NCBI GenBank assembly: GCA_022530585.1
Contig: CP092821.1
Span: 70,222 to 134,221, forward strand
DNA from: Candidatus Nealsonbacteria bacterium DGGOD1a
Lineage (GTDB): Bacteria; Patescibacteriota; Minisyncoccia; Minisyncoccales; UBA5738
Direction of reading: 5' to 3'
Length of the DNA stretch: 64,000 nucleotides
Shown here piece after piece: positions 37,302 through 64,000 of this stretch. Each line of letters opens with the position of its first letter. The first letter of the stretch is position 1. Both the position numbers and the translations under genes were made by a program. The notes beneath the pieces are model-generated. The model searched no databases. It had not been told where the DNA came from and saw nothing but the letters and a program-made list of their open reading frames with translations.

Positions 37302-37372
37302 GTCGAACGCTTTACTTTTTGTTAGAATTTGATAGTCTGGCAATTAGCAATTTAAGTATGAGGTGAGATTAT

Positions 37373-38578: not shown

Positions 38579-38628
38579 CCATAAGATAATTTGAAGATTG
38601 CACAGGTTAAACCTGTGCGATTGCGTAT

Positions 38629-46223: not shown

Positions 46224-46224
46224 T

Positions 46225-46338
46225 TAAAAATGTAAAAATCAAAAATCAAAATGACAATGTAAAATGTTAAAATTATTTAACTTGGCATTTTACAATTTTT
46301 AATTGTCATTTTCCATTTTGATTTTTCATTTTTACATT
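46225..46338. repeat. AT-rich palindromic intergenic repeat (tig/clpP spacer)
   Basis: aaaatgtaaaaatcaaaaatcaaaatgacaatgtaaaatg ... attttacaatttttaattgtcattttccattttgatttttcatttttacatt. Confidence 0.85.
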
Positions 46339-46342
46339 AATT

Positions 46343-48302: not shown

Positions 48303-51300
48303 ATGTTTAAACCAATCACAATTAAGAAAATCTTTTTAACAGCGTTTTTCTTGGCGGTTGCGATTAGCATTTGGCAAGGACAAAATGGCATTTCCGTGTT
48401 TGCCGCTGATCCGCAGAGTTGTAGCGGTTGGGGGGATTATCGGGATGCTTGTCCATCGGGAACAAGTTGCAACAACTATGTCTGTTGCCCTCCGGGGTAT
48501 TGCGGCTGGGGTAACGGGTTTGATTTTTCACGGGCTTGCGTTGCCAACGGCCAAACAATGGGGACTCATCGAAACAAAGCGATTTGCCGTAGCGGAGATT
48601 GGAAAACGCAATTGTACGGTTATGGATGCGAGCGCGAGGGTTACGAATGTGACAGCGGTACATGTCATGACGAGGGGTGGGATTTTCATTATTGCCGTGA
48701 TTTTGAAGCCGTTGATCGGGGAGTTTCACAAAGTTGCGCCGACGGCGAAACCTGTCCCTCGGGTACGAGTTGTTATTATACGCAGCCCGGTAATCCCACA
48801 ATTTGTTGTCCGCCGGGTTATGGTGCTTATGGCGGCGGGAACTTTGCCAAGACGTGCTTGGCTGCCGGCGAGATCCGGCAAAATATCTGGGCGCAGCAAA
48901 AGTTTAACGGCAGTACTTTTGTGATGCATGACACCGGAAGCTGGGGATGCCATGTACATGGCGTCTGCCCGGCGGGAACTAGTTGCCAGTTTATTAACGA
49001 TGAATATCATTGCCTAGGTTCCGTTCCGATGCCCGCATCTTATTTCGCTAACGATAATTATATTTCTGGAATATATCCGGCGGGAACCTGCAAAAGCTGC
49101 TTGGCGCAGGGAAAAAATTGCGGCATTGTTTCGGATAGATGTGGCGGTTATATTTATTGCGGCGAGTGTGCGGCGGGATCGCAGAGTTGTGTTGATAATG
49201 TATGCACTACGGCTGGCGTGTGCGCGGGCGACAACAATGTGTCCGGCTGGGCGTGGTCGGAAAATATCGGCTGGGTAAGTTTTAACTGCGCGGATATAAA
49301 CGCAAGTACGGGCGGCGGTAGTCCCAGCCCGGAGTTAGGGTTGGTTAGAATAGATTCTATATTAGGAATTACTCAACAGGTGGCGATGTCGGATAATGGC
49401 CAGTATCAAATTGTGTCAGGGGATTGGGAGTATAAGGAAGGGGAACAAAAGTGGACATTTTACACATCCAACGATTATGGTAAAACATGGATTAGGCAGG
49501 TTGATAATGCAGGTGCTTATCTGGTTTATGGCGATGCCGCGATATCGGATGACGGCCAATTCCAGATAGTGGTTGCCGGTAGTCGAGGGGTATCTTACGG
49601 TGAAATGTATATTTCCACCGATGGCGGTGAATCTTGGTCTAAAAACGCAAGTTATAGCAATATACCATGGTCATCGGTGGCGATGTCGGGAGACGGTAAT
49701 TATTTAATCGCAACCAGTTATGATGGTTTTTATGTCTCGCTTGATCAAGGATTGACATGGTCGAATTGTATGCCTATAGGCAGTTGGTCTGGAGCGGCTT
49801 TATCAAGCAACGGCAAGTATCAAATTGTTACGGACGAGCATTTTCTTGGTTATAGATATTCTTCTGATTACAGCAGCGGGACTAAAGGTGGTTGCGGATT
49901 TGTTACCGGTGATTTTATTTTGGGACCGATAGAAGATTATATAGGAGATCGATCGGTGGCGATGTCGGATAGTGGCCAATACATTACTGTCGCGATGAAT
50001 TCATCTACGAATAATTCCGATTATCTCTATGTTTCGTCAAATAACGGAGTTAGTTTCGAGAAAAAGGGGTTGGAAATAGGGTGGGATTCTGTGGCGATGG
50101 AAGATGATGGCAAACATCAAATAGCGGTTGGCGGACCAAGCGATAGGGAGTGGGGAAGTCGGGAAATATATGATTCGTTTGATTATGGCAATACTTGGAC
50201 GAAAAGATCGGATGGCGCGATACCGTCCGGAACGAGAGTTGATGTCGCCGTATCCGCAGACGGAAGTTGTGAATTATATGCGTCAGGTAGATTATACAAA
50301 GTTGGGTGTGATGGTGCGGGCGGCGGGTCTGGGGCCGAAATATCTAACATTGATTATGGGGTGGATATTGACGAAGACACGGGTTATATGTCAGGCTATG
50401 CCTGGTCGGAGAATATCGGCTGGATATCCTTTAATGAATCGGATATCGCCGGATGTCCTTCGGGTGTTTGCAAGGCAAAAATGGCGACTGTGCCTTCCGA
50501 CGGAAAATATGCGATAACCGGCTGGGCGCGGGTTTTATCGGTGAAAAACGAGCCGGCGAATAACGGCGGCTGGGAGGGATGGATAAAGCTTGACGGAACC
50601 TATATAGATTCCGTTGGCGATTTCCATGAATTCGCGTGGTCGGATATGGTTTTGGGGTGGTTGAGTTTTAACAGCGCCGATTGCGACGGCACCAGATGTA
50701 CCGCGGTTGGATCATACAAGGTTCATGTTGATCTGCCGCCGAAAGCGAAAATAAGTTGTGGCGGAGATTGTCAAGGAGGGCTTTGCGACAGCGATCCGGT
50801 TTCGGAATGGGTGATGTACCAGCCGATCGGCTGTCCGGCCTGCCAATTTAGGGTTAAAAGCACTGAATTGTCAAGCGGAAACATAGCGTGCACGAATTGG
50901 AAATTGATAAATGCGAGCACCAATGCGGTGGAGTGGCAATCCAATGTCAGCGATCTGACTTTCCCGGTGGGCGTGCCGGTCGGACATTTTAGATTGCAGC
51001 TGACGGTGAGCGATGACAACAGTAATTCCGATTGCACCGCGGGAAGTTCTTCGACCGATACCCATTTGATATGGATAAAGCGCGAAGTTCAAGCGGGTTT
51101 TATGTGTTCGTTTGAAAGTCCGTATCCGACCGAAGATGTTCCCGAACCCGATCCGAATTGGATGGATTGCAACAGCAGCGCTTTCAAGAAATTGGCAAAA
51201 AACCAAACGGTGTATGTAACCGACGATCCGGCGAAAAGCATCCATTCGACGAAATCGGAAGGCGCGGGCAACATATCTTCGCGAAAGTGGACATTTACGA

Positions 51301-51542
51301 TTGACGGGGCGGCTTCAAGCACCATCGGCACGACCGCCAGTTTCAACGCGGGAAAAACCAATAAGATCGATCTTAAAGTGACAGATGACAATCTTCCCGG
51401 GCAGGAAGGCTTCGGGCGGCAGGGCTGCATGTCGATTTCGGCCAATGCCAAATCGTTGCCCAAATGGCAGGAAGTCAGTCCGGTGGGGATGATCTGGAAT
51501 TATTTGGTTGCCAGTATCTCAAAAGTTTTCGCCACTCTGTAG
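48303..51542 (+). CDS. Large secreted surface protein: Cys-rich repeats, WSENIGW(V/I)SFN motifs and a BNR/Asp-box beta-propeller
   Basis: Signal/anchor at the N-terminus. Three CPSGTSC...CCPPGY modules. Asp-box-like repeats SNDYGKTW, STDGGESW, SLDQGLTW, SFDYGNTW. Three W-S-E/D-x-x-G-W-x-S-F-N motifs. Confidence 0.7.
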   Translation: MFKPITIKKIFLTAFFLAVAISIWQGQNGISVFAADPQSCSGWGDYRDACPSGTSCNNYVCCPPGYCGWGNGFDFSRACVANGQTMGTHRNKAICRSGDWKTQLYGYGCEREGYECDSGTCHDEGWDFHYCRDFEAVDRGVSQSCADGETCPSGTSCYYTQPGNPTICCPPGYGAYGGGNFAKTCLAAGEIRQNIWAQQKFNGSTFVMHDTGSWGCHVHGVCPAGTSCQFINDEYHCLGSVPMPASYFANDNYISGIYPAGTCKSCLAQGKNCGIVSDRCGGYIYCGECAAGSQSCVDNVCTTAGVCAGDNNVSGWAWSENIGWVSFNCADINASTGGGSPSPELGLVRIDSILGITQQVAMSDNGQYQIVSGDWEYKEGEQKWTFYTSNDYGKTWIRQVDNAGAYLVYGDAAISDDGQFQIVVAGSRGVSYGEMYISTDGGESWSKNASYSNIPWSSVAMSGDGNYLIATSYDGFYVSLDQGLTWSNCMPIGSWSGAALSSNGKYQIVTDEHFLGYRYSSDYSSGTKGGCGFVTGDFILGPIEDYIGDRSVAMSDSGQYITVAMNSSTNNSDYLYVSSNNGVSFEKKGLEIGWDSVAMEDDGKHQIAVGGPSDREWGSREIYDSFDYGNTWTKRSDGAIPSGTRVDVAVSADGSCELYASGRLYKVGCDGAGGGSGAEISNIDYGVDIDEDTGYMSGYAWSENIGWISFNESDIAGCPSGVCKAKMATVPSDGKYAITGWARVLSVKNEPANNGGWEGWIKLDGTYIDSVGDFHEFAWSDMVLGWLSFNSADCDGTRCTAVGSYKVHVDLPPKAKISCGGDCQGGLCDSDPVSEWVMYQPIGCPACQFRVKSTELSSGNIACTNWKLINASTNAVEWQSNVSDLTFPVGVPVGHFRLQLTVSDDNSNSDCTAGSSSTDTHLIWIKREVQAGFMCSFESPYPTEDVPEPDPNWMDCNSSAFKKLAKNQTVYVTDDPAKSIHSTKSEGAGNISSRKWTFTIDGAASSTIGTTASFNAGKTNKIDLKVTDDNLPGQEGFGRQGCMSISANAKSLPKWQEVSPVGMIWNYLVASISKVFATL

Positions 51543-51671
51543 GGAAGAGAAGCGGTTTTCATTGAGCTGATTATAAATACCTCGCGAACCGATACGCGAC
51601 AACGCAAAAGATTGTCCGCGGGCAGTTTTTGATTTGAAAAAGAACGGTTGTCGGTTTGCGGCGGCAAGAAT

Positions 51672-53198
51672 ATGGATGTAATTATGATAATTGAGTTTGT
51701 GTTCGTGTTGGCAACCGGCGCCACCATCGGGTATTATTCGCGCCAGGCGCTTGCCAAGAAACGCGCCGGCACCATCGAAAAAAACATTGCCGGAAAATTG
51801 GCCAAGGCTAAAATTGAAGCGCAAAAAATTGATCAGGAAGCGCAAACAAAGGCGCAAAAACTTTTGGAAGCGTCGCGTCAGGAAATAATTTTGCGCCAGC
51901 GGGAAATCGGCAAGACCGAGACATCGATTTTGAAACGGGAAAGCGTGTTGGAGCAGAAGATTGCCGAATTCGAAGTTGAAGAAAAGGAATTCCAGGAAAA
52001 AGTTAAAAAATTAAAATCGTTAAAAGAAACGCTTGACGAATTAAACAAGCAGGCGGTGGAAAATCTTGAGCGCACGGCCGGATTGACGAAAGTTGACGCC
52101 CATAATGAGCTTTTGGATACTTTGGAAAAAGAATACGCCAAAGATTTGTTGGAAAGAACCCGCAAGCTTGAAACCGAAGGTATGGAGCCGTTCAAGAAGC
52201 GCGCCCGGGAGATTCTGGTGGGCGCGATACAGAAATTCGCGCTTTCGCAGGCGCAGGAAGTGACCACTTCGGTGGTGAGTTTGCCCAACGATGACATTAA
52301 GGGCCGGATTATCGGCAAAGAGGGGCGCAATATCAGGACTCTTGAACGATTGACCGGGGTGGAAATAATTGTCGATGAAACACCCGAAACCGTGGTGATT
52401 TCGGGATTCGACCCCACGCGCCGGCAGATTGCCAAAATTGCGTTGGAGAAATTGATCCAAGATTCGCGCATCCAGCCGGCGCGGATCGAAGAAACCGTTA
52501 AAATAGCCGAAGAAGAGATTACCACGCAAATCAAAGAAGCGGGCGAACAGGCTTGTTATGATGTCAACATTCCCGATCTTAACCCGCGGCTGGTGCAATT
52601 GCTGGGAAGATTGAAATTTCGGACCAGTTACGGCCAGAATGTTTTGCTTCATTCCGTTGAAGTTTCGCATTTGGCGGCGGCGATTGCCGCGGAAGTGGGC
52701 GCCAATGTGAAAATCGCCAAGCGGGCGGGATTGTTGCACGATATCGGCAAGTCCGTCGACCAGCAGATTGAGGGGACGCATGTCGAGATCGGCGTTAAAA
52801 TTCTTGAAAAATTCAATGTTGATCCGGCCGTGATTTCGTCGGTGAGATCGCACCATGAAGATTTTCCCTATGAAAGCATCGAAGGCGTGATCGTGCAGGC
52901 CGCCGATCAAATTTCGGGAGCGCGGCCGGGGGCGAGAAAAGATACGGTGGAAAATTATTTAAAGCGTTTGGGGGAGTTGGAAGGCATTGCCACCTCGTTT
53001 GGCGGCGTGGAGAAAGCTTGGGCGCTGCAAGCCGGCCGCGAAATTAGAGTGTTTGTCCGGCCCAAGGATGTCGATGATTGGGGCGCCAAAAAAATGGCCA
53101 AGGATATCGCCAAGCGCATTGAAGAAGAATTGCGCTATCCGGGCGAAATTAAAGTCAATGTGATCCGTGAAACCCGCGTTATCGAATACGCCAAATAA
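51672..53198 (+). CDS. rny: Ribonuclease Y
   Basis: N-terminal TM segment, coiled coil, KH domain (GRIIGKEGRNIRTLE), HD domain (LLHDIGK...HH). Confidence 0.9.
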   Translation: MDVIMIIEFVFVLATGATIGYYSRQALAKKRAGTIEKNIAGKLAKAKIEAQKIDQEAQTKAQKLLEASRQEIILRQREIGKTETSILKRESVLEQKIAEFEVEEKEFQEKVKKLKSLKETLDELNKQAVENLERTAGLTKVDAHNELLDTLEKEYAKDLLERTRKLETEGMEPFKKRAREILVGAIQKFALSQAQEVTTSVVSLPNDDIKGRIIGKEGRNIRTLERLTGVEIIVDETPETVVISGFDPTRRQIAKIALEKLIQDSRIQPARIEETVKIAEEEITTQIKEAGEQACYDVNIPDLNPRLVQLLGRLKFRTSYGQNVLLHSVEVSHLAAAIAAEVGANVKIAKRAGLLHDIGKSVDQQIEGTHVEIGVKILEKFNVDPAVISSVRSHHEDFPYESIEGVIVQAADQISGARPGARKDTVENYLKRLGELEGIATSFGGVEKAWALQAGREIRVFVRPKDVDDWGAKKMAKDIAKRIEEELRYPGEIKVNVIRETRVIEYAK

Positions 53199-53216
53199 TC
53201 GAACCGAAAGATATTC

Positions 53217-53248
53217 CAAAAGGCGGCCTCGCAAGGCCGCCTTTTATT
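53217..53248 (+). terminator. Rho-independent terminator after rny
   Basis: aaaaggcggcc-tcgca-aggccgcctttt followed by att. Confidence 0.7.
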
Positions 53249-53315
53249 AACTGCGCAACTTGAATTTTTTTATTGAGGTTGATAAAATGAAATAATTTTG
53301 CCGGTAATTTGCAAT

Positions 53316-53525
53316 ATGCGCGGAAATAAAATCATAATTATAGTCATTGGCGTTGTTTTTGCGGTTATGGCGGCAATCGGGTTTTGGGAGTATGCCGGCG
53401 GTTTTCTTGGCGGGAATGATCAAAAACCGCAATTTCAACCGTTGCCAAAAACCGAATCCGTTGAAAATGAAAACAAAAACAGCGGTTCCATCGATCTCGT
53501 CCGTCCGCCCTTCCTTGATGAATGA
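53316..53525 (+). CDS. Small membrane-anchored hypothetical protein
   Basis: MRGNKIIIIVIGVVFAVMAAIGFW TM anchor. No motif recognised. Confidence 0.4.
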   Translation: MRGNKIIIIVIGVVFAVMAAIGFWEYAGGFLGGNDQKPQFQPLPKTESVENENKNSGSIDLVRPPFLDE

Positions 53526-53547
53526 TCGAGAAATTAAATTAAAAAAT

Positions 53548-54369
53548 ATGAAAATGAAAAATTTTTACCAGTTATTTGCCACGGCCGCAGTTCTTGGTTT
53601 TTTCGCCGCAATGCCGCAGGTTTCAAACGCCCAAACCGCGACCACAACCTTTCCGGTCGATCAGGCCGGCATCGCTGCCTATGTGAAACTCGGCCAATTG
53701 AGTTTGGATAATTTCGAGAACGCGAAAAATAACCTGTTTGATTATGTGGAAAATGCCGGAAGCGCTTACCTGATTGGCGTCAAAAAATATCCGGTTAGCG
53801 ATATTGAGATTACCAACAATACGATTGATGTCCGCCTTTATCTTGGCGCCAACGGCTGGCTGGTGGCCTATCTTCCGAAAGACCAGGAGCCGAGCCGGAT
53901 CGTTAATTGGCATTCGGGCCAGCCGTTGAGCAATACGATTCTGAAGGTTGCCGTTGACGACGCGGTCCAAAAAATCGGCGCGGCCGCGGCCGGGCCCGTG
54001 AACTACTATGATTTTGTCTATCCTGGTGCCAACAAAATGACTTTTGCCCGGCAAAACCTGAGCGATACGCTCGAAGGCGCCAATTCCGATTTGTCCAAAA
54101 CAATCAGCATTTTTGTTCCCGGAACTTTGTTGCAAGCAACCTATGCCATCAAGAGTTATGCCTCGGAGTGGGTGCCGAACAACGGTCCCCGCGCAGTATT
54201 GAATTTGAACAATGAACAAGTTGCCGTTTGCAACCCCGGTTCTTTTGGATACGGAACCTATCCCGGCGCTTTGTTCGCTTCGAACGCGAACAACAGCATC
54301 GAGCTGGCGCGGGGCAGCGGCATAAGGTATGTTTCGGCAGCGACCGCGCTGATCTATAAAACAAATTAA
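53548..54369 (+). CDS. Secreted hypothetical protein
   Basis: Signal peptide MKMKNFYQLFATAAVLGFFAAMPQVSNAQ. Its last ~168 bp are duplicated downstream. Confidence 0.55.
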   Translation: MKMKNFYQLFATAAVLGFFAAMPQVSNAQTATTTFPVDQAGIAAYVKLGQLSLDNFENAKNNLFDYVENAGSAYLIGVKKYPVSDIEITNNTIDVRLYLGANGWLVAYLPKDQEPSRIVNWHSGQPLSNTILKVAVDDAVQKIGAAAAGPVNYYDFVYPGANKMTFARQNLSDTLEGANSDLSKTISIFVPGTLLQATYAIKSYASEWVPNNGPRAVLNLNNEQVAVCNPGSFGYGTYPGALFASNANNSIELARGSGIRYVSAATALIYKTN

Positions 54370-54444
54370 CCAAAAATGTCAAAGAAACAAAAAATCTGGT
54401 TTGCGGTATTTCTGGCAATGTTCGCGGTGCCGGAAGTGCTGTGG
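54202..54444 (+). repeat. 243-bp direct repeat, copy 1
   Basis: Identical by eye to 54681-54923 (offset 479 bp). It spans the 3' end of the 53548-54369 gene, the spacer, and the first 69 nt of the next gene. Confidence 0.9.
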
Positions 54445-54687
54445 GGATTGGTGAATACATTTTTGTTTAAAATGTCATTGTTCCCGCCGCTTCAATCAAA
54501 TAAGTTGAATGCTTTAATAGTTAGTATCGAATTTGTTGGTATTTTATTCGCTACCATTATTTCTTTTCTGTTTTATACCCCCCCAAATATTTTCTTAAGG
54601 GCCACGATAAGAATTGTTTTTTTGATTTTGTTGTTGTTAACTTTTTATCTTTTATTGTTTTCTTTTAATTTTAATCCGCAAATTTGA
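54376..54687 (+). CDS. Small multi-TM membrane protein (variant 1)
   Basis: The N-terminus MSKKQKIWFAVFLAMFAVPEVLW is shared with 54855-55211. The remainder differs. Confidence 0.55.
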   Translation: MSKKQKIWFAVFLAMFAVPEVLWGLVNTFLFKMSLFPPLQSNKLNALIVSIEFVGILFATIISFLFYTPPNIFLRATIRIVFLILLLLTFYLLLFSFNFNPQI

Positions 54688-54923
54688 ACAATGAACAAGT
54701 TGCCGTTTGCAACCCCGGTTCTTTTGGATACGGAACCTATCCCGGCGCTTTGTTCGCTTCGAACGCGAACAACAGCATCGAGCTGGCGCGGGGCAGCGGC
54801 ATAAGGTATGTTTCGGCAGCGACCGCGCTGATCTATAAAACAAATTAACCAAAAATGTCAAAGAAACAAAAAATCTGGTTTGCGGTATTTCTGGCAATGT
54901 TCGCGGTGCCGGAAGTGCTGTGG
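54681..54923 (+). repeat. 243-bp direct repeat, copy 2
   Basis: See 54202-54444. Confidence 0.9.
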
Positions 54924-55211
54924 AGTCCGATAGCGAATTTTTATTATGGTGTTATCCGGGACAGCAATCCTGGCAGTTATTACCACGAATTTCGTGATAA
55001 TTTTTTGACAAATGGAGATAATACAGGAAGTCTAAAACTTGTCATAGTAACTCAATTTTTAGCTTTAATGGTTGTTTTTGTTATTTTAATAAAGTCTAAA
55101 TTTAGCAATAGTGTTGCTAAAATAATTGCAATCCTATTATTAAGTCTTTTAATTTTTTGCGTTGGGTTTGTCACTTTGTTTATGATGAGTTTTAATCTCC
55201 AAATAGGTTGA
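54855..55211 (+). CDS. Small multi-TM membrane protein (variant 2)
   Basis: Same first 23 aa as 54376-54687, then a divergent sequence. Confidence 0.55.
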   Translation: MSKKQKIWFAVFLAMFAVPEVLWSPIANFYYGVIRDSNPGSYYHEFRDNFLTNGDNTGSLKLVIVTQFLALMVVFVILIKSKFSNSVAKIIAILLLSLLIFCVGFVTLFMMSFNLQIG

Positions 55212-58066
55212 TTATACCCATGGAATTTAATCAGAGAATCTTTTTGTTTTTGGTATCGATTTGTTTGGTTTGCCAACCAATTTTTGCGTTTGATCAGGGA
55301 AGGATTAGCGATGCGGACGAAGAATGGTCAACGGATAGCGGTCGAATAGATCAATCTATCATCGATTCTTCAGGCGCAAATTTCAATTTATTCAATGAAG
55401 CGGTGATTTGCCACGCTGATGAGGTTTGGAGCTATGAGTTTGGAACAGTACCTAATGGCATGATCGATTCTTCAGACGCAAATTTTACTTTGCCCAACGA
55501 AGCGGTGATTTGTCATGCGGATGAAATCTGGAATAATGAATTGGCTGGTGTCCAGTTAAACGACGGTTCCGCGATTCAACAGGAAATAATTACCGGCGAG
55601 CAGGAGTGGGCGGAGAGCAGGTCAATTGACAAACAAGTTGTCATCAACGCCGGCGCGCGGCTGACGATCAAGAAGGGCGTGAAAATAACTTTTCAAAACA
55701 ATGGCTCGATTCTGGTCAACGGCGATTTGCTGGCCAAGGGAACCGTGAAGAATCCCATAGTTTTCAATGGTATGAACGGATACGCCGGAAGAATAATCAC
55801 CGTGGGAGAATCGGGCAAGGCCGATTTCAGAAACGCGGAGATTTCCACGAGCGCGATTGACGGCGGATTGCCGCCGCGGCAAACCGCGGTTTCGGTTTCC
55901 GGCGCGGGAATCTTGGAGATGCAGGCCTGTAACATCAACGGCAACGCGGCGGGAATCGAATTAAACCGCGTGAACGGCGGCAATATAAAAATCAATCGTT
56001 CGAAGTTTTTCAACAATATCGTTGATGTTGCCAATAATGATCCCGCCGCCGCAGTCTTGCCGGATTTCAAATGGAATTGGTGGGGAGATTCCGACGGACC
56101 CAATCAATCGCGCGTTACGGGAGTTGTCGATTCCGCCAACTGGGTCGCGGAAGAAAGCTTCCGCGACCCGGTAGTGGTGGTGCCGGGAATCCTTGGTTCG
56201 TGGATGAAGGATGGCAAATATGAAATTGATCCAGTGTTGCATTCTTTCGACGACTTGATCGCGCAACTGAAAGCCGCCGGTTATGTTGATGGCGTTGATT
56301 TATTTGAATTTCCCTATGAATGGCGTCAAAGCAATATCGACAGCGCGCGATTGTTGCGCGATAAGATCAATGAAATAAAAATCGAAAATAATAATTATCC
56401 CAAGATAGATATTGTTGCTCATTCCATGGGTGGACTGGTGGCGCGGCAATATATTGAATCCGCTGATTATCAAAACGATATTGATCAATTGATTACTATA
56501 GCAACGCCAAACAATGGATCGCCCGAAGTTTATTTAATACGGGAAGCGGGAGATTTAAAGCCGGGATTATTTGAATTTTTCGAAAAAAATGTTTTTATTC
56601 ACGAAGCCAAAGAAAATGGATTTCCCGATGTTTTCCCTTATGTGCGCGCTCGCATATCTTCGGTTTCGCAGATATTGCCGATTTATGATTATTTATACGA
56701 ATCCGATACGGGCGCGTTGCGTCAATATCCGGTTGGCTATCCTCGAAATGATTTTTTGGAGAATTTAAACCAAGTTGAAAAAATTAAAAAAATCAACGCG
56801 ATAGAATATGATAAAATTATTGCCAATCTTAACGAGAGCAATAGCACAATTACTGGATTTTTCATTGAGCCGACCCAGCAATATCCCAAATGGGAGCATG
56901 GCTATCCGGTAAATTACGATATTTTGGCTGGTTCAAGAGGTATGATTAAAGGAGCTGGCGACGGCACCGTGCCAATTGAATCAAGCCAGAGCGCCAATGT
57001 TCCTCAAGACGAAATTCTTGTTGAGAATTCGGAGCACATGCACGCTATCAGCAATAGCCGCCAAGATATAATTGAATTTTTGCTTGGTTATCGTATGCCC
57101 GCGGTTGGCGTTGAATGGAAAATGCCGAATTTAATGCTGGTACAGGTTTTTTCACCAGTGGACATTCAGGTGGTTGCGGCTGATGGCAAATGGGTTGGCA
57201 AAAACATTTCCAATTTACCGGTAACCGATAGAATTGCCGAGGCGTATTATACCGGTTATGATGCGCAAGCGGAATTTATTGCCATTCCCAATCCGAGCGG
57301 CGAATATAAAATTATTACACAAGGCACAAACACCGGCGATTATTCCGTGGAAGCAACGGTGATTTCGCAAAATAACGGAAATGGCCAAGCCCAAGAAGCA
57401 ACGACCACGATTCAAGGAATGGCGGTCTTGGGGAAAGTTGATCAAATGGAAATTGAAGTGAGCGATGGAAAAGTTATCGTTAATAGCGATATTTTAGCGC
57501 CGGTGATTAAAATAAACTTGCCGGAGAATGGTAAATCATATCTTAATAACCAAATTTTGCCGATAAATTATCAGGTAAGCGACAATAAAACCGCTACGGA
57601 TACAATTGAAGTCGGTATTTTTTTGGACAATGCCACAACAACCGGCAATGTTATTGATCTTGCTTTCCAAAAAACAGGCGATCACGCGTTGAAAATTGAA
57701 GCAAAAGATGAGGCGGGCAATGCAACTTCGACCGTAGCCACATTTGAAGTGTCGGCTTCAATTGATTCGATCATCGCCAATATCAATCGTTACGCGGCTA
57801 TGGGTTTGGTTAACAAGGCTGAAAAATCCATTTTGAATGTTCAAACGCAATTATTGAAAACGCAATTCCGCCTTTTGGAGCGAACCAAGAACAACCCCAG
57901 ACTTTCAGTCAAGGCCAAGGCTCTTGCGGTTTCTATTATTAGATCAACAATCAATTCGCATATTGACATAATGATCAAAGGAATCAAGAAAACAACCGCT
58001 AAGATAATTGATGCGAATGCCGCATTTTTGCTTATTGATAACTTGAGGTATATTAAGATAAAATAA
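55208..58066 (+). CDS. Large secreted protein: tandem N-terminal repeats, beta-helix-like region, alpha/beta-hydrolase (lipase/LCAT-like) domain, Ig-like region and a C-terminal helical module
   Basis: Signal peptide. Two IDSSxANFxLxNEAVICHADExW repeats. PVVVVPGILGSW and the VAHSMGGLVARQY nucleophile elbow. The C-terminal ~60 aa are homologous to ORFs 58369-58548 and 58866-59051. Confidence 0.65.
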   Translation: MIIPMEFNQRIFLFLVSICLVCQPIFAFDQGRISDADEEWSTDSGRIDQSIIDSSGANFNLFNEAVICHADEVWSYEFGTVPNGMIDSSDANFTLPNEAVICHADEIWNNELAGVQLNDGSAIQQEIITGEQEWAESRSIDKQVVINAGARLTIKKGVKITFQNNGSILVNGDLLAKGTVKNPIVFNGMNGYAGRIITVGESGKADFRNAEISTSAIDGGLPPRQTAVSVSGAGILEMQACNINGNAAGIELNRVNGGNIKINRSKFFNNIVDVANNDPAAAVLPDFKWNWWGDSDGPNQSRVTGVVDSANWVAEESFRDPVVVVPGILGSWMKDGKYEIDPVLHSFDDLIAQLKAAGYVDGVDLFEFPYEWRQSNIDSARLLRDKINEIKIENNNYPKIDIVAHSMGGLVARQYIESADYQNDIDQLITIATPNNGSPEVYLIREAGDLKPGLFEFFEKNVFIHEAKENGFPDVFPYVRARISSVSQILPIYDYLYESDTGALRQYPVGYPRNDFLENLNQVEKIKKINAIEYDKIIANLNESNSTITGFFIEPTQQYPKWEHGYPVNYDILAGSRGMIKGAGDGTVPIESSQSANVPQDEILVENSEHMHAISNSRQDIIEFLLGYRMPAVGVEWKMPNLMLVQVFSPVDIQVVAADGKWVGKNISNLPVTDRIAEAYYTGYDAQAEFIAIPNPSGEYKIITQGTNTGDYSVEATVISQNNGNGQAQEATTTIQGMAVLGKVDQMEIEVSDGKVIVNSDILAPVIKINLPENGKSYLNNQILPINYQVSDNKTATDTIEVGIFLDNATTTGNVIDLAFQKTGDHALKIEAKDEAGNATSTVATFEVSASIDSIIANINRYAAMGLVNKAEKSILNVQTQLLKTQFRLLERTKNNPRLSVKAKALAVSIIRSTINSHIDIMIKGIKKTTAKIIDANAAFLLIDNLRYIKIK

Positions 58067-58076
58067 TTATAAAAAA

Positions 58077-58367
58077 ATGATGGATGATATTGGTTTGGGC
58101 AGGGCATTGGCGAATGCGGCTTATTTGTTTCTTTTTTCTACAGCGCTTATCGGAGTATTGATTTTTTTAAAATTTGGAAAGAGGTTGTTTGCTTTTTGGT
58201 GGGTGTCGGCGATGGCCAATATTTTTGCATTTTTATATCTTTTGGGCGGGTATGGCGATTTTGTCTATATGATGCAGATAGTTGCGATGATTGCGTGGCC
58301 GATAATCAATATTGCTTGGCTATTGGATTTGATTAGAGATTATTTAAAGAACAAAAAACACAAATAA
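58077..58367 (+). CDS. Small 3-TM membrane protein with a WPIINI motif (cassette a)
   Basis: The C-terminal 55 aa are identical to 58571-58864. Confidence 0.55.
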   Translation: MMDDIGLGRALANAAYLFLFSTALIGVLIFLKFGKRLFAFWWVSAMANIFAFLYLLGGYGDFVYMMQIVAMIAWPIINIAWLLDLIRDYLKNKKHK

Positions 58368-58368
58368 A

Positions 58369-58548
58369 TTGAAACAAAATAATTCTCTGCCAACAAAAAC
58401 CAGATTGGCTTTGATAAAAACCGCTCGAATCGCGATCAACAAGCAAATTGATTTGCTGGTAAAAGAAATAAAAATGAGCGATAAGGGAATTGACGCGAAA
58501 ATTATAAAACTGCTTATTGATTCGCTGGAGAATGTTAAAATAAAATAA
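58369..58548 (+). CDS. 59-aa helical protein homologous to the C-terminus of the 952-aa protein (TTG start)
   Basis: LKQNNSLPTKTRLALIKTARIAINKQIDLLVKEI...LLIDSLENVKIK parallels ...LAVSIIRSTINSHIDIMIKGI...LLIDNLRYIKIK. Below the 60-aa ORF-track cutoff. Confidence 0.45.
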   Translation: MKQNNSLPTKTRLALIKTARIAINKQIDLLVKEIKMSDKGIDAKIIKLLIDSLENVKIK

Positions 58549-58570
58549 AATTAACAATAATAAATAAAGT

Positions 58571-58864
58571 ATGCTGGGAATATATGAAGGTATCGGCCGC
58601 ATTTTAGGTATAGCGACTTATATTTTAATCTCTCTCTTTGCTTTAATCGGCGGTTTAATTTTTTGGTATAAGAAAAAAATTTCATGGGCTTTTTGGTGGC
58701 TATCGGCGATGGCCAATATTTTTGCATTTTTATATCTTTTGGGCGGGTATGGCGATTTTGTCTATATGATGCAGATAGTTGCGATGATTGCGTGGCCGAT
58801 AATCAATATTGCTTGGCTATTGGATTTGATTAGAGATTATTTAAAGAACAAAAAACACAAATAA
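58571..58864 (+). CDS. Small 3-TM membrane protein with a WPIINI motif (cassette b)
   Basis: The N-terminal half is divergent and the C-terminal half identical to 58077-58367. Confidence 0.55.
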   Translation: MLGIYEGIGRILGIATYILISLFALIGGLIFWYKKKISWAFWWLSAMANIFAFLYLLGGYGDFVYMMQIVAMIAWPIINIAWLLDLIRDYLKNKKHK

Positions 58865-58865
58865 A

Positions 58866-59051
58866 TTGAAACAAAATAATTCTCTGCCAACAAAAACCAG
58901 ATTGGCTTTGATAAAAACCGCTCGAATCGCGATCAACAAGCAAATTGATTCGCTGGTAAAAGAGATTCAAAAATCGGCGGGCAAGGGGATCAAAATCGAT
59001 ATCGTAAATTTGTTGGTGGATTCGTTGAAATACATTAAAATAAAACCATAG
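58866..59051 (+). CDS. 61-aa helical protein homologous to the C-terminus of the 952-aa protein
   Basis: MKQNNSLPTKTRLALIKTARIAINKQIDSLVKEI...LLVDSLKYIKIKP. Confidence 0.45.
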   Translation: MKQNNSLPTKTRLALIKTARIAINKQIDSLVKEIQKSAGKGIKIDIVNLLVDSLKYIKIKP

Positions 59052-59064
59052 CAATTTAAAATAT

Positions 59065-59502
59065 ATGAATTTATTGGGTTTTTATCCCGACAAGGAGTCT
59101 GATTTTAAATTTACGGTTTTTCTTTTTGCGATCGCGGCAATGGTTTCGATTTTTGTTCTTATAAAAACTAAGGATAGAATAAAGGCCGGCAAAACTTTTT
59201 CGGTTTTGGGCAATCTTGCGTTGTTGCCTGCCGGTTGCGCGGGAACATTATCGATTTTCGGCATGTGGTGGCTTGGACTTTTTGCGGTTTACATCTGGCC
59301 GATAATCAACATTATGCTTTTCGTAAAAAGAAAAATTCTGGCATTATTCCTATGTTCAACGGCACTGAATGTGTTTTTTGCATATGTTTTCTTCGATAAT
59401 CCTCCTTATAGGCTTGGATTGTTCAGCGGTATTCTTTGGCCCGCAACCAATATCTTGCTACTGGCTTACATTCTAATCAAAAGGAAACGGAAAGGCGGAT
59501 GA
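59065..59502 (+). CDS. Multi-TM membrane protein with two WP(I/A)xNI motifs (cassette c)
   Basis: IWPIINIMLFV and ILWPATNILLLA. It looks like a duplicated version of the 96-aa proteins. Confidence 0.5.
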   Translation: MNLLGFYPDKESDFKFTVFLFAIAAMVSIFVLIKTKDRIKAGKTFSVLGNLALLPAGCAGTLSIFGMWWLGLFAVYIWPIINIMLFVKRKILALFLCSTALNVFFAYVFFDNPPYRLGLFSGILWPATNILLLAYILIKRKRKGG

Positions 59503-59545
59503 GGCAGTCTCGCGCGCATTAAAACAAGTTAAGATTGGAAACCAA

Positions 59546-60061
59546 ATGAACAAAAAAATCAAAACCACTGTAATAGCCGCGGCCATTCTGGGATTGCTGG
59601 CGTTGATATGGTTTTTCGCCGCGGACTATCTGTTCGCGTTCATTCTTTCAAAGATTTTCCCGCCCGGCCCGCCGGCGCCGACAACGCAACTGCTTCCCTG
59701 CGACGGCAATCCGGCCAGCCAAGTGGAGTTGGGGTATCCTCATATTGGCGGTTTGACCGCGGAATTTACCACTTCGGGCGGCGAAATTTATGTTGTTGCG
59801 CGAAGGTATGAACACGGAATTTTGCTCCCGAACAGAGGGGGAACCGGTATTTATGTTGGGGTTTCTACTGAATTGCCGGTTTGGGATAAGCAAAGAAGCA
59901 CGATAAGTAATGTTTACCAAGAGGTAACTGCTTTGGAAAAAGGCTACGCCGCATTAACTTTGCCCGCCGGCCGTTATTGGCTTTGGTCAAGCGCGGGCGG
60001 CGATATCGTGGTCTACAGTTGCGATCCCAATGGCGTGAGCGATCCCAAGCCGGTGCGGTAG
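59546..60061 (+). CDS. Membrane-anchored hypothetical protein
   Basis: N-terminal TM segment (VIAAAILGLLALIWFFAADYLFAFIL). No motif recognised. Confidence 0.45.
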   Translation: MNKKIKTTVIAAAILGLLALIWFFAADYLFAFILSKIFPPGPPAPTTQLLPCDGNPASQVELGYPHIGGLTAEFTTSGGEIYVVARRYEHGILLPNRGGTGIYVGVSTELPVWDKQRSTISNVYQEVTALEKGYAALTLPAGRYWLWSSAGGDIVVYSCDPNGVSDPKPVR

Positions 60062-60164
60062 GAAATAAATTTGTTTTGGTCGGAGTTGTTGGTTTTTATT
60101 CCGAAAACAAAAAAGTAAATGATGTTTTAAGTTTTTTACAAAGAGAGGGGGTGAACCCGCTTTT

Positions 60165-60344
60165 AGGCGGCTTTCCAAAATAACTTCCATACCATGCCCG
60201 CATCTTTGTTCCAGATTTAAAATTTCCTCGGTCGCAATATTTTCAATGTAGCGATCGCCACACCTCAAATATTGCTCGGTCGGAAATTTGAAATCTGGGA
60301 CAAATCTGCGGGTAATATATGGAAGTTATTTTGGAAAGCCGCCT
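60165..60344. repeat. 180-bp palindromic element: 27-bp perfect inverted repeats flanking 126 bp, upstream of the pilin gene
   Basis: aggcggctttccaaaataacttccata (60165-60191) is the exact reverse complement of tatggaagttattttggaaagccgcct (60318-60344). The interior is an imperfect palindrome centred on gcgatcgc. Confidence 0.9.
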
Positions 60345-60384
60345 TAGGCTGTTGCGGCTCTTTTTTTTGGTGTATAATCGAATA

Positions 60385-60978
60385 ATGACGGGTATTATAA
60401 AAAAAATTAAAAATCGCGCGGAAAATTTTTCATTGCCGGCCGCCCGCGGTTTCACGCTGGTGGAGATGCTGGTGGCGATCACGATATTTTCCATGTCTAT
60501 GGGCGTGGTGATGGAATTATTTCTTCATTCAATGCGTATCCAGAGAACTTTGGTGGCGCACGCCCAGCTGATCAACGAGATGTCTTACAACTTGGAACAT
60601 ATCAGCCGCGGCTTGAGAATGGCGAAAAAAAGCGCGGATTCGGCTTGTTTGTCGGCGCCGGGAAAAAATTTTGAAATAACCGCTTCCGGCGTCAAATTTC
60701 TGAATCCCAAATTGAACGGCGGGACTGAATGCGTGGAATATTATTTGAGCGGCCAAACTTTATTTGAAAGGCGCGATGCCGGGGTATGGTCTTTTAATTT
60801 GCCGCTGACTTCGCCGGATGTCAAGGTGTTGTCTTTTTCCGCGGCGGGATCGGGCTGGTCCCAGGAAGATTTTTTGCAGCCGCGGGTTACGGTGTATATC
60901 AAGGCGCAGAGCAAGGAAAACGAGATTTTGGAAAATCAAATCACGGTGTCGCAGCGCGATATTGATATCAATGAATAA
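60385..60978 (+). CDS. Type IV pilin / pseudopilin-like protein
   Basis: Prepilin N-terminal cleavage/methylation motif ARGFTLVEMLVAITIFS. An extended -10 (tgtataat, 60371-60378) lies 6 nt before the ATG. Confidence 0.75.
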   Translation: MTGIIKKIKNRAENFSLPAARGFTLVEMLVAITIFSMSMGVVMELFLHSMRIQRTLVAHAQLINEMSYNLEHISRGLRMAKKSADSACLSAPGKNFEITASGVKFLNPKLNGGTECVEYYLSGQTLFERRDAGVWSFNLPLTSPDVKVLSFSAAGSGWSQEDFLQPRVTVYIKAQSKENEILENQITVSQRDIDINE

Positions 60979-61052
60979 ATTCGCGACAATTCGCCGGGGC
61001 GGCCTCGGTTTGTTTACCGGCGGCGGATTATATAAATTTACCGATCCAAATT

Positions 61053-61496
61053 ATGTTAAATTTTGGCAAAAAAATTAATTTATTTTTGGAATTCAACCGC
61101 CGCAACGGCAGAAGAGGAATCGCGATTTATCTGGCCGCGGTGGTTCTGACGATAATCCTGGCGGTTGCTTTGGGGGTGAGCTTGCTGTCGGTTTACCAGT
61201 TAAAAAGTTTGAACGAGGCCGGAGCTTCGGTAGTGGCTTTTGCCGCGGCGGAAACCGGAGTTGAATGGTCCCTTACTTCGTGGATATCGGGTAGTTATCT
61301 GGACACGACGAATTACCAGTCGGCTTGTCCTTGGGACGCTGCAACATCAAAATATATTTGCGCCCGGAACATCGCGTTGGGCGACGCCAGTTATACCGTC
61401 GACGCGTCATTATGCGGTCCGGCCAACGAGTATTTGTGCGTCAGATCGCTGGGAAGCTATCGCAATACCCAGCGGGCGATCAGAGTCCAGATGTAA
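61053..61496 (+). CDS. PilX-N-like minor pilin / pilus assembly protein
   Basis: RRGIAIYLAAVVLTIILAVALGVSLL resembles the PilX N-terminal hydrophobic segment. Adjacent to the pilin gene. Confidence 0.5.
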   Translation: MLNFGKKINLFLEFNRRNGRRGIAIYLAAVVLTIILAVALGVSLLSVYQLKSLNEAGASVVAFAAAETGVEWSLTSWISGSYLDTTNYQSACPWDAATSKYICARNIALGDASYTVDASLCGPANEYLCVRSLGSYRNTQRAIRVQM

Positions 61497-61573
61497 ATTT
61501 TGATTCTTTTGGTTGATGGCGGGGTTAATACCCCGATCGCGGACTCGAATGGAAAATATAAAATTTATTTTGC

Positions 61574-63634
61574 ATGTCTAAACAAGAAGCTAAAGAACGG
61601 ATCGCGAAATTGGCCAGACTTATCAATCATTACCGCTACGCGTATCATATACTTGACAAGCCGGAAATTTCGGATGAGGCGCTTGATTCCTTGAAAAAGG
61701 AACTTTTTGATTTGGAGGCGCTTTGGCCCGATCTTGTTTCGCCGGATTCGCCGACGCAGCGCGTGGCCGGACGGCCTCTGGCGAAGTTTACCAAATACAG
61801 CCATAAATCGCCGATGATTTCATTTAACGACGCGTTTTCCGCGCAGGATATAAACGATTGGCTTGATCGCGCCAAGCGATTGTTATCGGACGCCGAAATC
61901 AAAAAAATCGATTTTTTTTGCGAGCCGAAACTCGACGGATTGGCGATAGAGCTGATTTATGAGAATGGCAGTTTGAAAGTCGGCGCCACCCGCGGCGATG
62001 GCCGTATCGGCGAGAATGTCACTCAAAATTTGAAAACGATCGAAGCCATACCCTTGCGTTTGCGTTCCGCCGATGAGATTGTCGCCGGATTGCGCGCGAG
62101 CGGATTGAAAAAAATGGCCGCCGCCGCGGGCAACGGATTGAAAGAAGTGATTGTGCGCGGCGAGGTGGTTATCACCGCGCGCGAGTTCGACCGGATCAAT
62201 AAAAAACAAATGGAGAATGGTTTGCCGCAATTTGCCAATCCCCGCAATCTGGCCGCCGGATCGATTCGCCAGCTTGATCCGAAGATTACCGCTTCCCGCC
62301 ATCTGGATTCGAATTGTTACGCGCTGGTTAGCGATTACGGACAGATTACCCACGAGGAAGAGCATAAATTTTTGGAGATTGCCGGTTTTAAAACAAACAA
62401 TAAATTCAGCAAGTATTGCCCGGCGTTGGCCGATGTTTTCGCTTTCCATGAATATTGGTATAAAAATCGCAAAAATCTGCCCTATGAGATTGACGGTATC
62501 GTGGTGGCGATTAACGATAATGCCATTTTTAAAAAACTGGGCGTGGCGGGCAAGGCGCCGCGGGGCGCGATCGCGTATAAATTTCCGTTGAAACAAACAA
62601 CAACGATCGTGGAAGATATTTTGGTGCAGGTGGGCCGGACCGGCGCGCTGACGCCGGTGGCGGTTTTGAGTCCGGTGGCCGTGGGCGGAGTGATGATTTC
62701 CCGGGCGACTTTGCACAACGAGGATGAAATCCGCCGGCTCGGGTTGAAGATCGGCGACACGGTGGTGGTGGGCCGCGCCGGCGATGTGATTCCGGATATT
62801 TTAAAAGTTTTGCCCGAATTGCGGACCGGCCGGGAGCGCGAATTTAGAATGCCCGAAACCTGTCCGATTTGCGGCGGACGCGTCGCGAAAAAAGAAAGCG
62901 AGGCGGTTTGGCGGTGCGCCAATCTTGAATGTTTCGCCGTTCAGAAAAGAAATTTGGATCATTTTGTTTCCCGGGCGGCTTTCAATATCGACGGCATGGG
63001 TCCCAAGATTATCGAACATTTGATTGACGAGGGCTTGATTCGCGACGCGGCCGATATTTTTAATCTTAAAGAAGGCGATCTTGTTCCTTTGGAACGGTTC
63101 GCGGAAAAATCCGCTAAAAATCTGGTGGAAGCGATAAACCAAAAAAAGCGGATAACTTTGCCGCGTTTTGTTTACGCTTTGGGGATTCGCAACGCGGGCG
63201 AGCAGACCAGCCGCGCTTTAAGCGACAGCTTTGGCAGTTTTGAAAAAATTAGAACCGCTTCTTTGGAGGATTTGCGGGCAGTGGCGGACATCGGTCCGGT
63301 GGTGGCGGAATCAATTCGCGAGTGGTTTGCCAAGCCTGAAAATTTGAGATTGATCGATAAGTTTTTTGATGTCGGGATTAAAATCGAGCCGTACAAAAAG
63401 GCGGATGGCAGATTGCGAGGCTTGAGCTTTGTGATTACCGGCACGCTTGAATCAATGAGCCGCCAGAACGCCAAGGACATTGTGCGCGAATTGGGTGGCG
63501 CGGCGGCGGAGACGGTGTCAAAAAACACCGATTATCTGGTCGCGGGCGAGAATCCCGGATCAAAATTCGCCAAAGCGCGAAAATTGGGAGTGAAGATTAT
63601 CGACGAAAAAGAATTTAAAAAAATAACAAGTTGA
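61574..63634 (+). CDS. ligA: NAD-dependent DNA ligase
   Basis: Adenylation motif CEPKLDGLA, OB fold, Zn finger CPICGGRV...CANLEC, HhH region, BRCT C-terminus. Confidence 0.95.
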   Translation: MSKQEAKERIAKLARLINHYRYAYHILDKPEISDEALDSLKKELFDLEALWPDLVSPDSPTQRVAGRPLAKFTKYSHKSPMISFNDAFSAQDINDWLDRAKRLLSDAEIKKIDFFCEPKLDGLAIELIYENGSLKVGATRGDGRIGENVTQNLKTIEAIPLRLRSADEIVAGLRASGLKKMAAAAGNGLKEVIVRGEVVITAREFDRINKKQMENGLPQFANPRNLAAGSIRQLDPKITASRHLDSNCYALVSDYGQITHEEEHKFLEIAGFKTNNKFSKYCPALADVFAFHEYWYKNRKNLPYEIDGIVVAINDNAIFKKLGVAGKAPRGAIAYKFPLKQTTTIVEDILVQVGRTGALTPVAVLSPVAVGGVMISRATLHNEDEIRRLGLKIGDTVVVGRAGDVIPDILKVLPELRTGREREFRMPETCPICGGRVAKKESEAVWRCANLECFAVQKRNLDHFVSRAAFNIDGMGPKIIEHLIDEGLIRDAADIFNLKEGDLVPLERFAEKSAKNLVEAINQKKRITLPRFVYALGIRNAGEQTSRALSDSFGSFEKIRTASLEDLRAVADIGPVVAESIREWFAKPENLRLIDKFFDVGIKIEPYKKADGRLRGLSFVITGTLESMSRQNAKDIVRELGGAAAETVSKNTDYLVAGENPGSKFAKARKLGVKIIDEKEFKKITS

Positions 63635-63694
63635 CCGTTGCCGGACTTTTGCGGCCGTATTGCCATAATTTGTTTCAAATTCGTTTTTTCAATG

Positions 63695-63765
63695 AGCGGG
63701 CAGCGGGATTTGCACCCGCGCCGAAACCTTGGAAGGGTTTCGTGCTGCTGCTACACTATGCCCGC
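63695..63765 (-). tRNA. tRNA-Gly (anticodon TCC)
   Basis: Reverse complement: acceptor gcgggca/tgcccgc, anticodon stem gaaacc/ggtttc with loop ctTCCaa, T-loop ggtgcaaatcc. Confidence 0.85.
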
Positions 63766-63849
63766 CTTCGGTTTGCCGAAGCGAACCTTTGGCGAGGCGA
63801 AGCCCGCCGATAGGTTCGCGAAGGCGACCTTCGCGATTGTATTTTTTTG

Positions 63850-63920
63850 TCGGGGCGCCCGGATTCGAACCGGGACCAAATCCTCCCAAAGGACTCATGC
63901 TGCCGTTGCACTACGCCCCG
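63850..63920 (-). tRNA. tRNA-Pro (anticodon TGG)
   Basis: Reverse complement: acceptor cggggcg/cgccccg, anticodon stem agtcc/ggatt with loop ttTGGga (G37), T-arm cccgg-ttcgaat-ccggg. Confidence 0.85.
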
Positions 63921-64000
63921 CCTTCGCTGAAGCTACGGCGGACAAGCCCGTTTCATCCTTTGGGCGATATTTCTTCTTTCTCCATTATCCTATATCGTAA

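Follow-up and report, generated by a model that had tools for sequence, protein, structure and literature searches.

Within a 64,000-nt stretch of the genome of Candidatus Nealsonbacteria bacterium DGGOD1a (contig CP092821.1; hereafter the window), a long palindrome lies directly upstream of a type IV pilin-like gene. The genes upstream of the palindrome are all on the + strand and comprise a gene for a 171-amino-acid (aa) protein, duplicated small membrane-protein genes, the gene for a 948-aa lipase-like protein, further unknown genes and the RNase Y gene (rnY). A first-pass annotation of this DNA had reported a pair of perfect 27-bp inverted repeats here, and had read them either as the borders of an invertible promoter segment (inverton) acting on the pilin gene or as the stem of a long hairpin. 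We compared the locus with related loci in other assemblies, which are cited below by L number; the coordinates of the features are collected in Table 1.

Anatomy and boundaries of the palindrome

The left 27-mer, AGGCGGCTTTCCAAAATAACTTCCATA, and its partner hold as first described: the two match exactly, none of 100 shuffles contained such a match, and the 64-kb window has no further match to the 27-mer at up to three mismatches. The repeats are the outermost part of something larger. A repeat finder returned a single palindrome with arms at 60165-60254 and 60255-60344 and a spacer of 0. When the arms are compared position by position, 71 of 90 positions are paired, with all of the outer 27 perfect and 44 of the inner 63 (70%) matched, so that the mismatches are unevenly distributed. 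The interior had been noted as largely palindromic and centred on GCGATCGC, which agrees with the 90+90-nt palindrome found here. The CTCGGTCG block was also correctly described as running in the same direction in the two halves; with the register moved by 2 nt, two G.U pairs allow its core, CGGUCG, to self-pair.

The long-hairpin reading is borne out by the palindromic interior and by folding far above that of shuffled sequences. The predicted energies are -109 kcal/mol for the + strand RNA (z -11.7), -116 kcal/mol for the - strand RNA (z -15.3) and -63 kcal/mol for single-stranded DNA (z -12.6). Open reading frames (ORFs) inside the palindrome have no protein-family support. Rfam gave no family match at its gathering thresholds, and its sub-threshold matches were only long-hairpin plant miRNA precursors, the best being MIR8007 with 49 bits vs a cut-off of 195. 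A single non-coding, hairpin-forming (foldback) segment of 176-180 bp has the 27-bp repeats as its outer stem.

We found the segment at full length in seven assemblies (window/L021, L001, L002, L004/L053, L022/L052, L051 and L054) and in part in five more (L023 and L055-L058), all twelve coming from about ten samples. Locus L021 (GCA_029216075.1, contig JARDUI010000019.1) is 100% identical to window 49546-64000. Since the identical sequence recurs in independent assemblies from about ten samples, the palindrome is not an assembly artefact. Its orientation, compared at the level of assemblies, is the same in all twelve. Contig breaks inside the element are scattered and do not fall at the repeat borders, which is the usual effect of a palindrome on assemblers. 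The sole variant in the element, 60279 G>A, occurs in two strains and turns the right block into CTCGATCG; the identity of the two CTCGGTCG blocks is thereby lost, a U.G pair becomes U-A in the shifted register, and pairing is improved. Homologs carry Minisyncoccales (Patescibacteria) source labels, and the segment itself is specific to one species-level Minisyncoccales lineage.

The relatives L005/L006 and L011 lack both the palindrome and the DNA to its left. In L005 and L006, whose pilin is 94% identical, the window is matched at 50386-53245 and again at 60347-61505, each at 93%, and only 8 bases (GGCAGATT) stand between the two matches where the window has the palindrome and about 7.1 kb. 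In L011, likewise, the pilin gene comes directly after rnY. Block and element are always jointly present or jointly absent.

The other limit of the segment comes from a paralogous site. In L023 and L051, which belong to the same species, the 3' end of a paralog of the 171-aa gene and its 106-nt flank are 87-94% identical to window 59952-60167. This identity stops at ...CCCGCTCTTAGG, after which comes the upstream region of the next gene, with no palindrome. Because the paralogous match ends at 60167 and the relative's homology resumes at about 60344, the segment without a counterpart is 60168-60343; an equivalent description is a 178-bp unit GGCGGC...GCCGCC between TTA flanks. Elsewhere, homologs of the 171-aa gene occur in [271-280][948-959][171-172]-aa pairs or triples at various chromosomal positions. 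The block itself includes such a module ([271][948][171] aa), to which relatives have syntenic counterparts elsewhere on the chromosome, and the homologous modules in other places end in an ordinary short terminator, with no long hairpin. As judged from these alignments, the palindrome is placed exactly at the right junction of a block inserted between the RNase Y terminator and the promoter of the pilin gene.

Table 1. Features of the palindrome locus, followed by the distant recombinase and transposase genes (positions in the window)
Feature	Position	Strand	Remarks
RNase Y terminator hairpin AAAAGGCGGCCTCGCAAGGCCGCCTTTT	53218-53246	+	left junction of the block
Lineage-specific accessory block	53246-60346	+	~7.1 kb; the closest relative, L005, has 8 nt GGCAGATT instead
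Last gene of the inserted block	59546-60061	+	171 aa; no Pfam family
3' flank of the 171-aa gene	60062-60167	+	106 nt; 87-94% identical copy after the paralogous gene in L023 and L051
Left direct repeat TTAGG (or TTA), candidate target-site duplication	60163-60167	+	present also in the element-free paralogous flank (CTCTTAGG)
Whole imperfect palindrome	60165-60344	.	180 nt; 90-nt arms, 79% complementary
Left 27-bp perfect repeat	60165-60191	+	in effect a terminal repeat of 26 bp (GGCGGC..., from 60166) preceded by the A of the flanking TTA
Segment without counterpart in relatives	60168-60343	.	flank homology ends at 60167; recipient homology resumes at ~60344-60347
Left CTCGGTCG block	60227-60234	+	direct, not inverted, relative to its partner
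Palindrome centre GCGATCGC	60251-60258	.	flanked by a ~30-nt poorly paired central region
Right CTCGGTCG block	60275-60282	+	site of the sole polymorphism in the element
Right 27-bp perfect repeat	60318-60344	-	exact reverse complement of the left repeat
Right direct repeat TTAGG (or TTA)	60344-60348	+	TTGG here in L005
T8 tract and TGTATAAT, core promoter region	60360-60378	+	T8 at 60361-60368, TGTATAAT at 60371-60378; kept in palindrome-free relatives
Type IV pilin-like (minor pilin) gene	60385-60978	+	197 aa; N-terminal methylation motif
Large serine recombinase, integrase type	32543-34243	-	566 aa; ~26 kb from the element
Hairpin CCCTGTCGGTCTTGCCGCAGGG flanking the TnpA gene	34285-34306		
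IS200/IS605 TnpA (Y1)	34389-34838	+	IS200 TnpA 110.9 bits; RAYT 32.9 vs cut-off 80
Hairpin CCCTGCGGTCTTGCCGCAGGG flanking the TnpA gene	34848-34868		

The pilin gene and its promoter

We regard the gene downstream of the palindrome as a minor pilin because its ortholog in distant relatives is the third of three pilin-like genes behind the prepilin peptidase gene, just before ligA. In those relatives the orthologous gene is part of an operon and lacks a separate promoter. Public gene calls put the pilin start at ATG 60319, within the right arm of the palindrome, and give it 219 aa. This start is probably too long, as homologs and the conserved promoter point to the ATG at 60385, 6 nt past TGTATAAT. 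The extended -10 element that the first-pass annotation had placed there keeps its position but not its canonical form: the TG directly abuts TATAAT and lacks the TGnTATAAT spacing.

The T-tract, TGTATAAT, the 6-nt spacing and the ATG are all kept in palindrome-free relatives at 94% and 64% pilin identity. After the palindrome, the window continues with TTAGGCTGTTGCGGCTC, T8, GGTGTATAAT, CGAATA and the ATG. The corresponding order in L005 is RNase Y, terminator hairpin, GGCAGATTGGCTGTTGCGACTC, T8, GGTGTATAAT, CAAATA and ATG, and L011 (64% pilin identity), with rnY directly upstream, retains TTTATTTTTTTGTTGTATAAT, TGAAGA and ATG. Since they are conserved in relatives that have no palindrome, the pilin promoter and its 6-nt spacing are ancestral and palindrome-independent, and the palindrome therefore lies outside the conserved control region. 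The same conservation supports the earlier suggestion of a leaderless or near-leaderless pilin mRNA, which we consider probable. The locus supports a conserved promoter for a probably leaderless minor pilin; we found nothing relevant in the literature on leaderless pilin genes in Patescibacteria.

Origin and possible role of the palindrome

Our preferred reading, held with moderate confidence, is that the palindrome is an orphan foldback insertion resembling a miniature inverted-repeat transposable element (MITE), that it sits at the edge of the accessory block, and that its hairpin would end or insulate the island transcript; it would not be an invertible promoter. The segment would have arisen by transposition. 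The segment has the structural marks of a MITE, being small (176-180 bp) and transposase-free with 26-27-bp perfect termini. The 26-bp termini start GGCGGC, the interior is partly palindromic, the flanks are TTA/TTAGG, and the segment is absent from orthologous as well as paralogous sites. Because the termini are perfect and the interior only 70% matched, ends derived from the two ends of an insertion sequence fit better than a decayed palindrome. MITE families may have as few as one copy per genome (PMC10969869).

Among known elements, the Correia elements (CREE) of Neisseria and other bacterial MITEs share with the palindrome a length of ~100-200 bp, the lack of coding sequence, ~26-bp terminal inverted repeats, a short AT-containing flanking duplication that is putative in the present element, and an intergenic position immediately upstream of a gene. 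MITEs can be cleaved by RNase III at the terminal repeats or can change transcript 3' ends, and the hairpins formed by transcribed copies of Correia elements and other MITEs can be cut by RNase III and can affect the expression of neighbouring genes (PMC2649163, PMC10969869). Correia elements differ, however, in forming families of >100 copies, in their TA duplication, in their integration host factor (IHF) site and in their outward promoters, whereas the present element is known from one copy, has a putative TTA/TTAGG duplication and no promoter-like site detected by scan, and has yielded no related sequence or parent transposase in the collections searched. ERIC/IRU and SPRITE-type repeats are likewise imperfect palindromes of >100 nt in transcribed intergenic regions that alter transcript stability or termination (PMC10969869), and the present element resembles them in that it would close a transcription unit, with a T-tract behind it. 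The ERIC/IRU and SPRITE-type repeats form multi-copy families; the element described here is unique, has a greater length (180 nt) and occurs in a single lineage. The class that suits it best is that of the palindromic MITE-like intergenic elements, of which it would be an orphan member.

Since all local genes lie on the + strand, transcription of the island's last unit would be expected to run into the element, which likely forms the 3' end of that unit. Once transcribed, the element would fold into a hairpin with an energy of about -100 kcal/mol. The older T8 tract follows the palindrome after 16 nt. In the minimum-free-energy fold, the flanking pairs CCGC/GCGG and GCUU/AGGC prolong the stem of the palindrome to 2 nt before UCUUUUUUUU, bringing basal pairing within 2 nt of the tract, and a scan flags a weak, small terminator-like hairpin at 60347-60359 that reaches the U-tract. 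As the T8 is ancestral in the promoter region, the insertion would have fortuitously created a very stable hairpin plus U-tract. Hairpin and T8 together would make a terminator-like, exonuclease-blocking structure, and they would likely insulate the pilin promoter from island read-through by stopping or processing it. By analogy with Correia elements (PMC2649163, PMC10969869), the hairpin would also be a likely RNase III substrate.

Several findings weigh against a MITE-like terminator or insulator. The T8 tract belongs to the promoter region and is older than the element, and the terminator role is only predicted. The putative flanking duplication is short (3-5 bp), with its left copy in island DNA and its right copy in recipient DNA. 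We found no precise empty site within the species, because the element coincides with the island junction. A second copy was equally elusive. Neither the 27-mer (up to three mismatches) in the 64-kb window nor short-word blastn of one arm against the masked window found one, and there was none in 78 retrieved loci or in about 270 kb of related loci. These copy searches were exact-word scans of incomplete collections, with the rest of the source genome outside them. An exact 20-mer scan gave 0 matches in genome contigs; in metagenome contigs it gave the same locus plus one chance match (L003), at low power, as it missed several JGI contigs known to carry the element. A gapped scan of genome contigs for the termini (GGCGGCTTTCC-N140-170-GGAAAGCCGCC) returned 23 matches, all by chance, with arm complementarity of 0.26-0.47 except in L040, a Saprospiraceae genome. 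L040 was rejected as a second copy, its match being an unrelated larger palindrome. A viral 19-mer scan and distant blastn against phage and plasmid collections gave nothing, and no parent insertion sequence with matching ends was found in the collections searched. The literature on MITEs in CPR bacteria likewise yielded nothing relevant. We also rejected an origin of the arm from the 3' end of a 190-aa gene (YVEVLEK vs MEVILES), the similarity not being significant.

The first-pass annotation had named, as what would refute its reading, a single orientation in all reads together with a 27-mer that recurs as a multi-copy MITE end. Of these, the single orientation holds at the level of assemblies. 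The 27-mer is not such a multi-copy end in the data searched, a result that favours neither an inverton nor a classic MITE family.

The element also lies within 5 bp of the island junction, which hints at a mechanistic link, the two events being inseparable in these data. Apart from the conserved 3' flank and the promoter, this junction is all the intergenic DNA that is free, so that a later insertion there is not wildly improbable. That the element is instead mechanistically tied to the insertion of the accessory block we consider unlikely, though by no means negligible.

One form of such a tie, itself a decidedly minor prospect, makes the palindrome an attachment-site (att)-like end: a hairpin-forming site of the 7.1-kb block would have recombined with the RNase Y terminator hairpin, perhaps as folded single-stranded DNA, and left a shared core AA(G/A)GCCGCCTT at both junctions. 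It would account for the closeness of element and junction and for the constant co-occurrence of element and island. The 3' half of the terminator, AAGGCCGCCTT (53235-53245), and the right terminus, AAAGCCGCCTT (60334-60344), match at 10 of 11 positions, so that an 11-nt direct repeat brackets the block, and the outer stem AGGCGGC/GCCGCCT resembles the rnY terminator stem. Related modules are found at different chromosomal sites, one of them beside a gene for a TrwB-like coupling protein. In L016, a solo 34-mer between the TrwB-like gene and the first gene of the homologous module matches the right arm at 27/34 positions, in a stretch that runs 8 nt past the perfect repeat. This 34-mer scores above 500/500 mononucleotide shuffles and is tied by 1/200 dinucleotide shuffles. 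Integron attC sites and the CTX phage attP would be similar in kind, as imperfect, bulged palindromes of ~60-150 nt at the end of a mobile block, with a core shared with the target hairpin. The present element nevertheless lacks a recognised integrase or Xer-type site and any R/L box consensus. No recombinase was found among the scanned ORFs in or beside the block, and the related module of L019 is cleanly inserted with no palindrome and no repeat beyond 2 nt. The left end of the island is unlike the sequence after the L016 34-mer (292/500 shuffles equal or better), and in a circular-permutation test against L016, with the right end of the island joined to its left end, the arm alone matched. 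An arm-like 34-mer is absent upstream of 20 other homologous modules, and a clean model requires an additional 9-nt deletion at the right junction.

More speculative, and in our view quite improbable, is an extension by analogy in which the palindrome would be the folded single-strand attachment site of Patescibacteria surface-protein modules, integrating hairpin to hairpin beside terminators with a host recombinase encoded elsewhere. The AAGCCGCCTT core at both junctions and the solo 34-mer of L016 would then be traces of that site. If the element were indeed the recombination site of the module, it would represent a new route of surface-protein cassette exchange in reduced genomes.

Also rather unlikely is a by-product of the insertion, namely filler DNA made by fold-back priming or template switching at a broken end during microhomology-mediated illegitimate joining. 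The element exactly fills the space from where island homology stops (60167) to where recipient homology begins (~60344), there is TT(A)GG microhomology at the junction, the sequence is single-copy in all collections searched, and the related module in L019 has a 58-nt palindrome at its rearranged left end (L019 4510-4567). Fold-back synthesis should, however, duplicate the flank, whereas neither arm copies neighbouring island or recipient DNA. The contrast between the perfect 27 bp and the 70% interior also misfits one inverted duplication followed by uniform decay.

We find it doubtful that the palindrome is a dedicated regulatory hairpin of the pilin gene, acting as a DNA cruciform or operator at -40 to -220 or as an upstream RNA that modulates transcription. 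Its right arm does end 26 nt before the -10 box, in the position of an UP element, the structure is very stable, and the perfect outer 27 bp together with the pairing-improving variant suggest structural constraint. Yet the promoter is conserved beside a different upstream sequence in the element-free relatives, the pilin ortholog of distant relatives is an operon gene that lacks a separate promoter, Rfam offers no matching family, and the element is represented by one sequence lineage only, in which no conservation or covariation is demonstrable.

An inverton, in which a site-specific recombinase would flip 60192-60317 between the 27-bp repeats and phase-vary the pilin gene, is very improbable. 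In its favour stand perfect 27-bp inverted repeats around 126 bp directly upstream of a surface-structure gene, the breaks of some contigs inside the element, and the inversion reported even for Correia MITEs (PMC10969869); known invertons, such as fimS and the Bacteroides capsule promoters, also have inverted repeats on either side of a short stretch of DNA that precedes a surface-appendage gene (PMC11892184, PMC11602134). Unlike them, the present element has a palindromic interior without a promoter-like site by scan, no nearby invertase that we could find, one orientation, and a gene whose own conserved promoter lies downstream of the repeats. With an interior that is 70% self-complementary, a flip would alter only ~30% of the interior positions. 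Neither strand of 60165-60344 has a sigma-70-like site by scan rules that may not be this phylum's own. The single orientation extends over twelve assemblies from about ten samples, in which contig breaks avoid the repeat borders. No recombinase was found among the ORFs scanned within -12/+10 kb of the element (the scan of the window covered ~45 larger + strand ORFs and two - strand ORFs). For inverton scans this is an instructive negative, in that switch-like repeats upstream of a pilus gene turned out to form the stem of a foldback insertion peculiar to one lineage; alignment to close relatives was enough to expose a false inverton candidate, with no need of read data.

The accessory block, related modules and other palindromes

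The first-pass annotation had placed the sole recombinase of the window 26 kb from the repeats. A serine recombinase is indeed encoded there, of the large integrase type and in a separate block, but the window also encodes a second transposition enzyme, an IS200 TnpA (Y1) (Table 1). We rejected TnpA as the mobiliser of the palindrome, its flanking hairpins being unrelated to the element. REPINs, which RAYT (Y1) transposases mobilise, resemble the locus in consisting of long hairpins of two inverted units, and the window has a Y1 transposase gene; the 27-mer is nevertheless not a REP-like palindrome and is single-copy, and the Y1 gene of the window is IS200-type with unrelated hairpins. The block that carries the serine recombinase and TnpA (32543-38626) is absent from the relative L019, adjoins a tRNA gene (32661-32731) and is probably an integrated element.

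The 7.1-kb block represents a recent insertion of a variable surface-protein module beside type IV pilus genes in an ultra-small bacterium of the candidate phyla radiation (CPR), delimited to a few bases. It is mosaic and recombination-prone. Tandem duplications inside it (54202-54444/54681-54923, 100%; 58191-58475/58688-58974, 98%) gave rise to the duplicated small membrane-protein genes, whose paralogs are differently arranged in L023 and L051. The last block gene of L051 is only 76% identical as a protein, with its 3' end and the palindrome identical. A hydrocarbon-metagenome contig is 100% identical to window 58960-60054 and then switches, 7 bases before the stop codon, to the inverted start of a LexA-methyltransferase gene (L020 1041-1279), either a strain rearrangement or an assembly chimera.

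Related modules occur in other settings, and none was found in viral contigs. L019 4436-8613 holds a related [958][172][171]-aa module at the point corresponding to window 31904. The PHO4-HAD spacer of the window is uninterrupted there and so serves as a clean empty site; the only duplication at the L019 insertion is a 2-nt GC, and its right end lacks a palindrome. In two divergent genomes, a conserved leader of ~200 nt lies upstream of the 278-aa module gene (L059 3684-4001, L069 3719-4001) and has a terminator-like hairpin (GCCGGCTTTTTGATTGCCGGTTTTGTTTT) at its end, so that it is a candidate attenuator or riboswitch. In L069 (2946-3800), a 257-aa gene that weakly matches Y1 transposases adjoins the homolog of the module's first gene and has directly 3' of it a hairpin, AACTTGGCGAGGTGTCACCTAGAC...GTCTAGGTGACACCTCGCCAAGTT, with a stem of ~26 bp.

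Further palindromes are scattered over the window. A 176-nt imperfect palindrome at 7340-7515 has arms that are 71-75% complementary, 21-26-bp perfect termini and TTAA at both ends. Its neighbours are a Fic-domain gene (6139-7224, +) on one side and a small minus-strand ORF on the other, and it has no sequence in common with the element at 60165, to which it is unrelated. An AT-rich family of palindromic intergenic repeats, 93-139 nt long, occupies 24646-24784, 25763-25855, 28272-28369, 29733-29840, 43721-43835 and 46221-46339, with copies in the ATP synthase gene cluster (between its genes), ahead of nusA and in the tig-clpP spacer. Its arms carry TTGTCA-N17-TAAATT-like motifs, and the copy at 24646 was found as a palindrome and left out of the alignment. 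The atpG-atpD spacer of L019 holds a different palindromic repeat (TTCGGATTTCGAA).

Palindromes of at least 60 nt number six in the window vs none in about 100 kb of DNA from relatives, and the element at the pilin locus adds to the evidence for unusually many long intergenic palindromes in this genome. A palindrome with 22-bp arms (GCGAATTTGGAGGTCAATCCTC...) at window 419-471 recurs with 97.6% identity at L021 17896-17980, ~67 kb away on the same contig and beyond the end of the window, and is a second repeated palindromic element.

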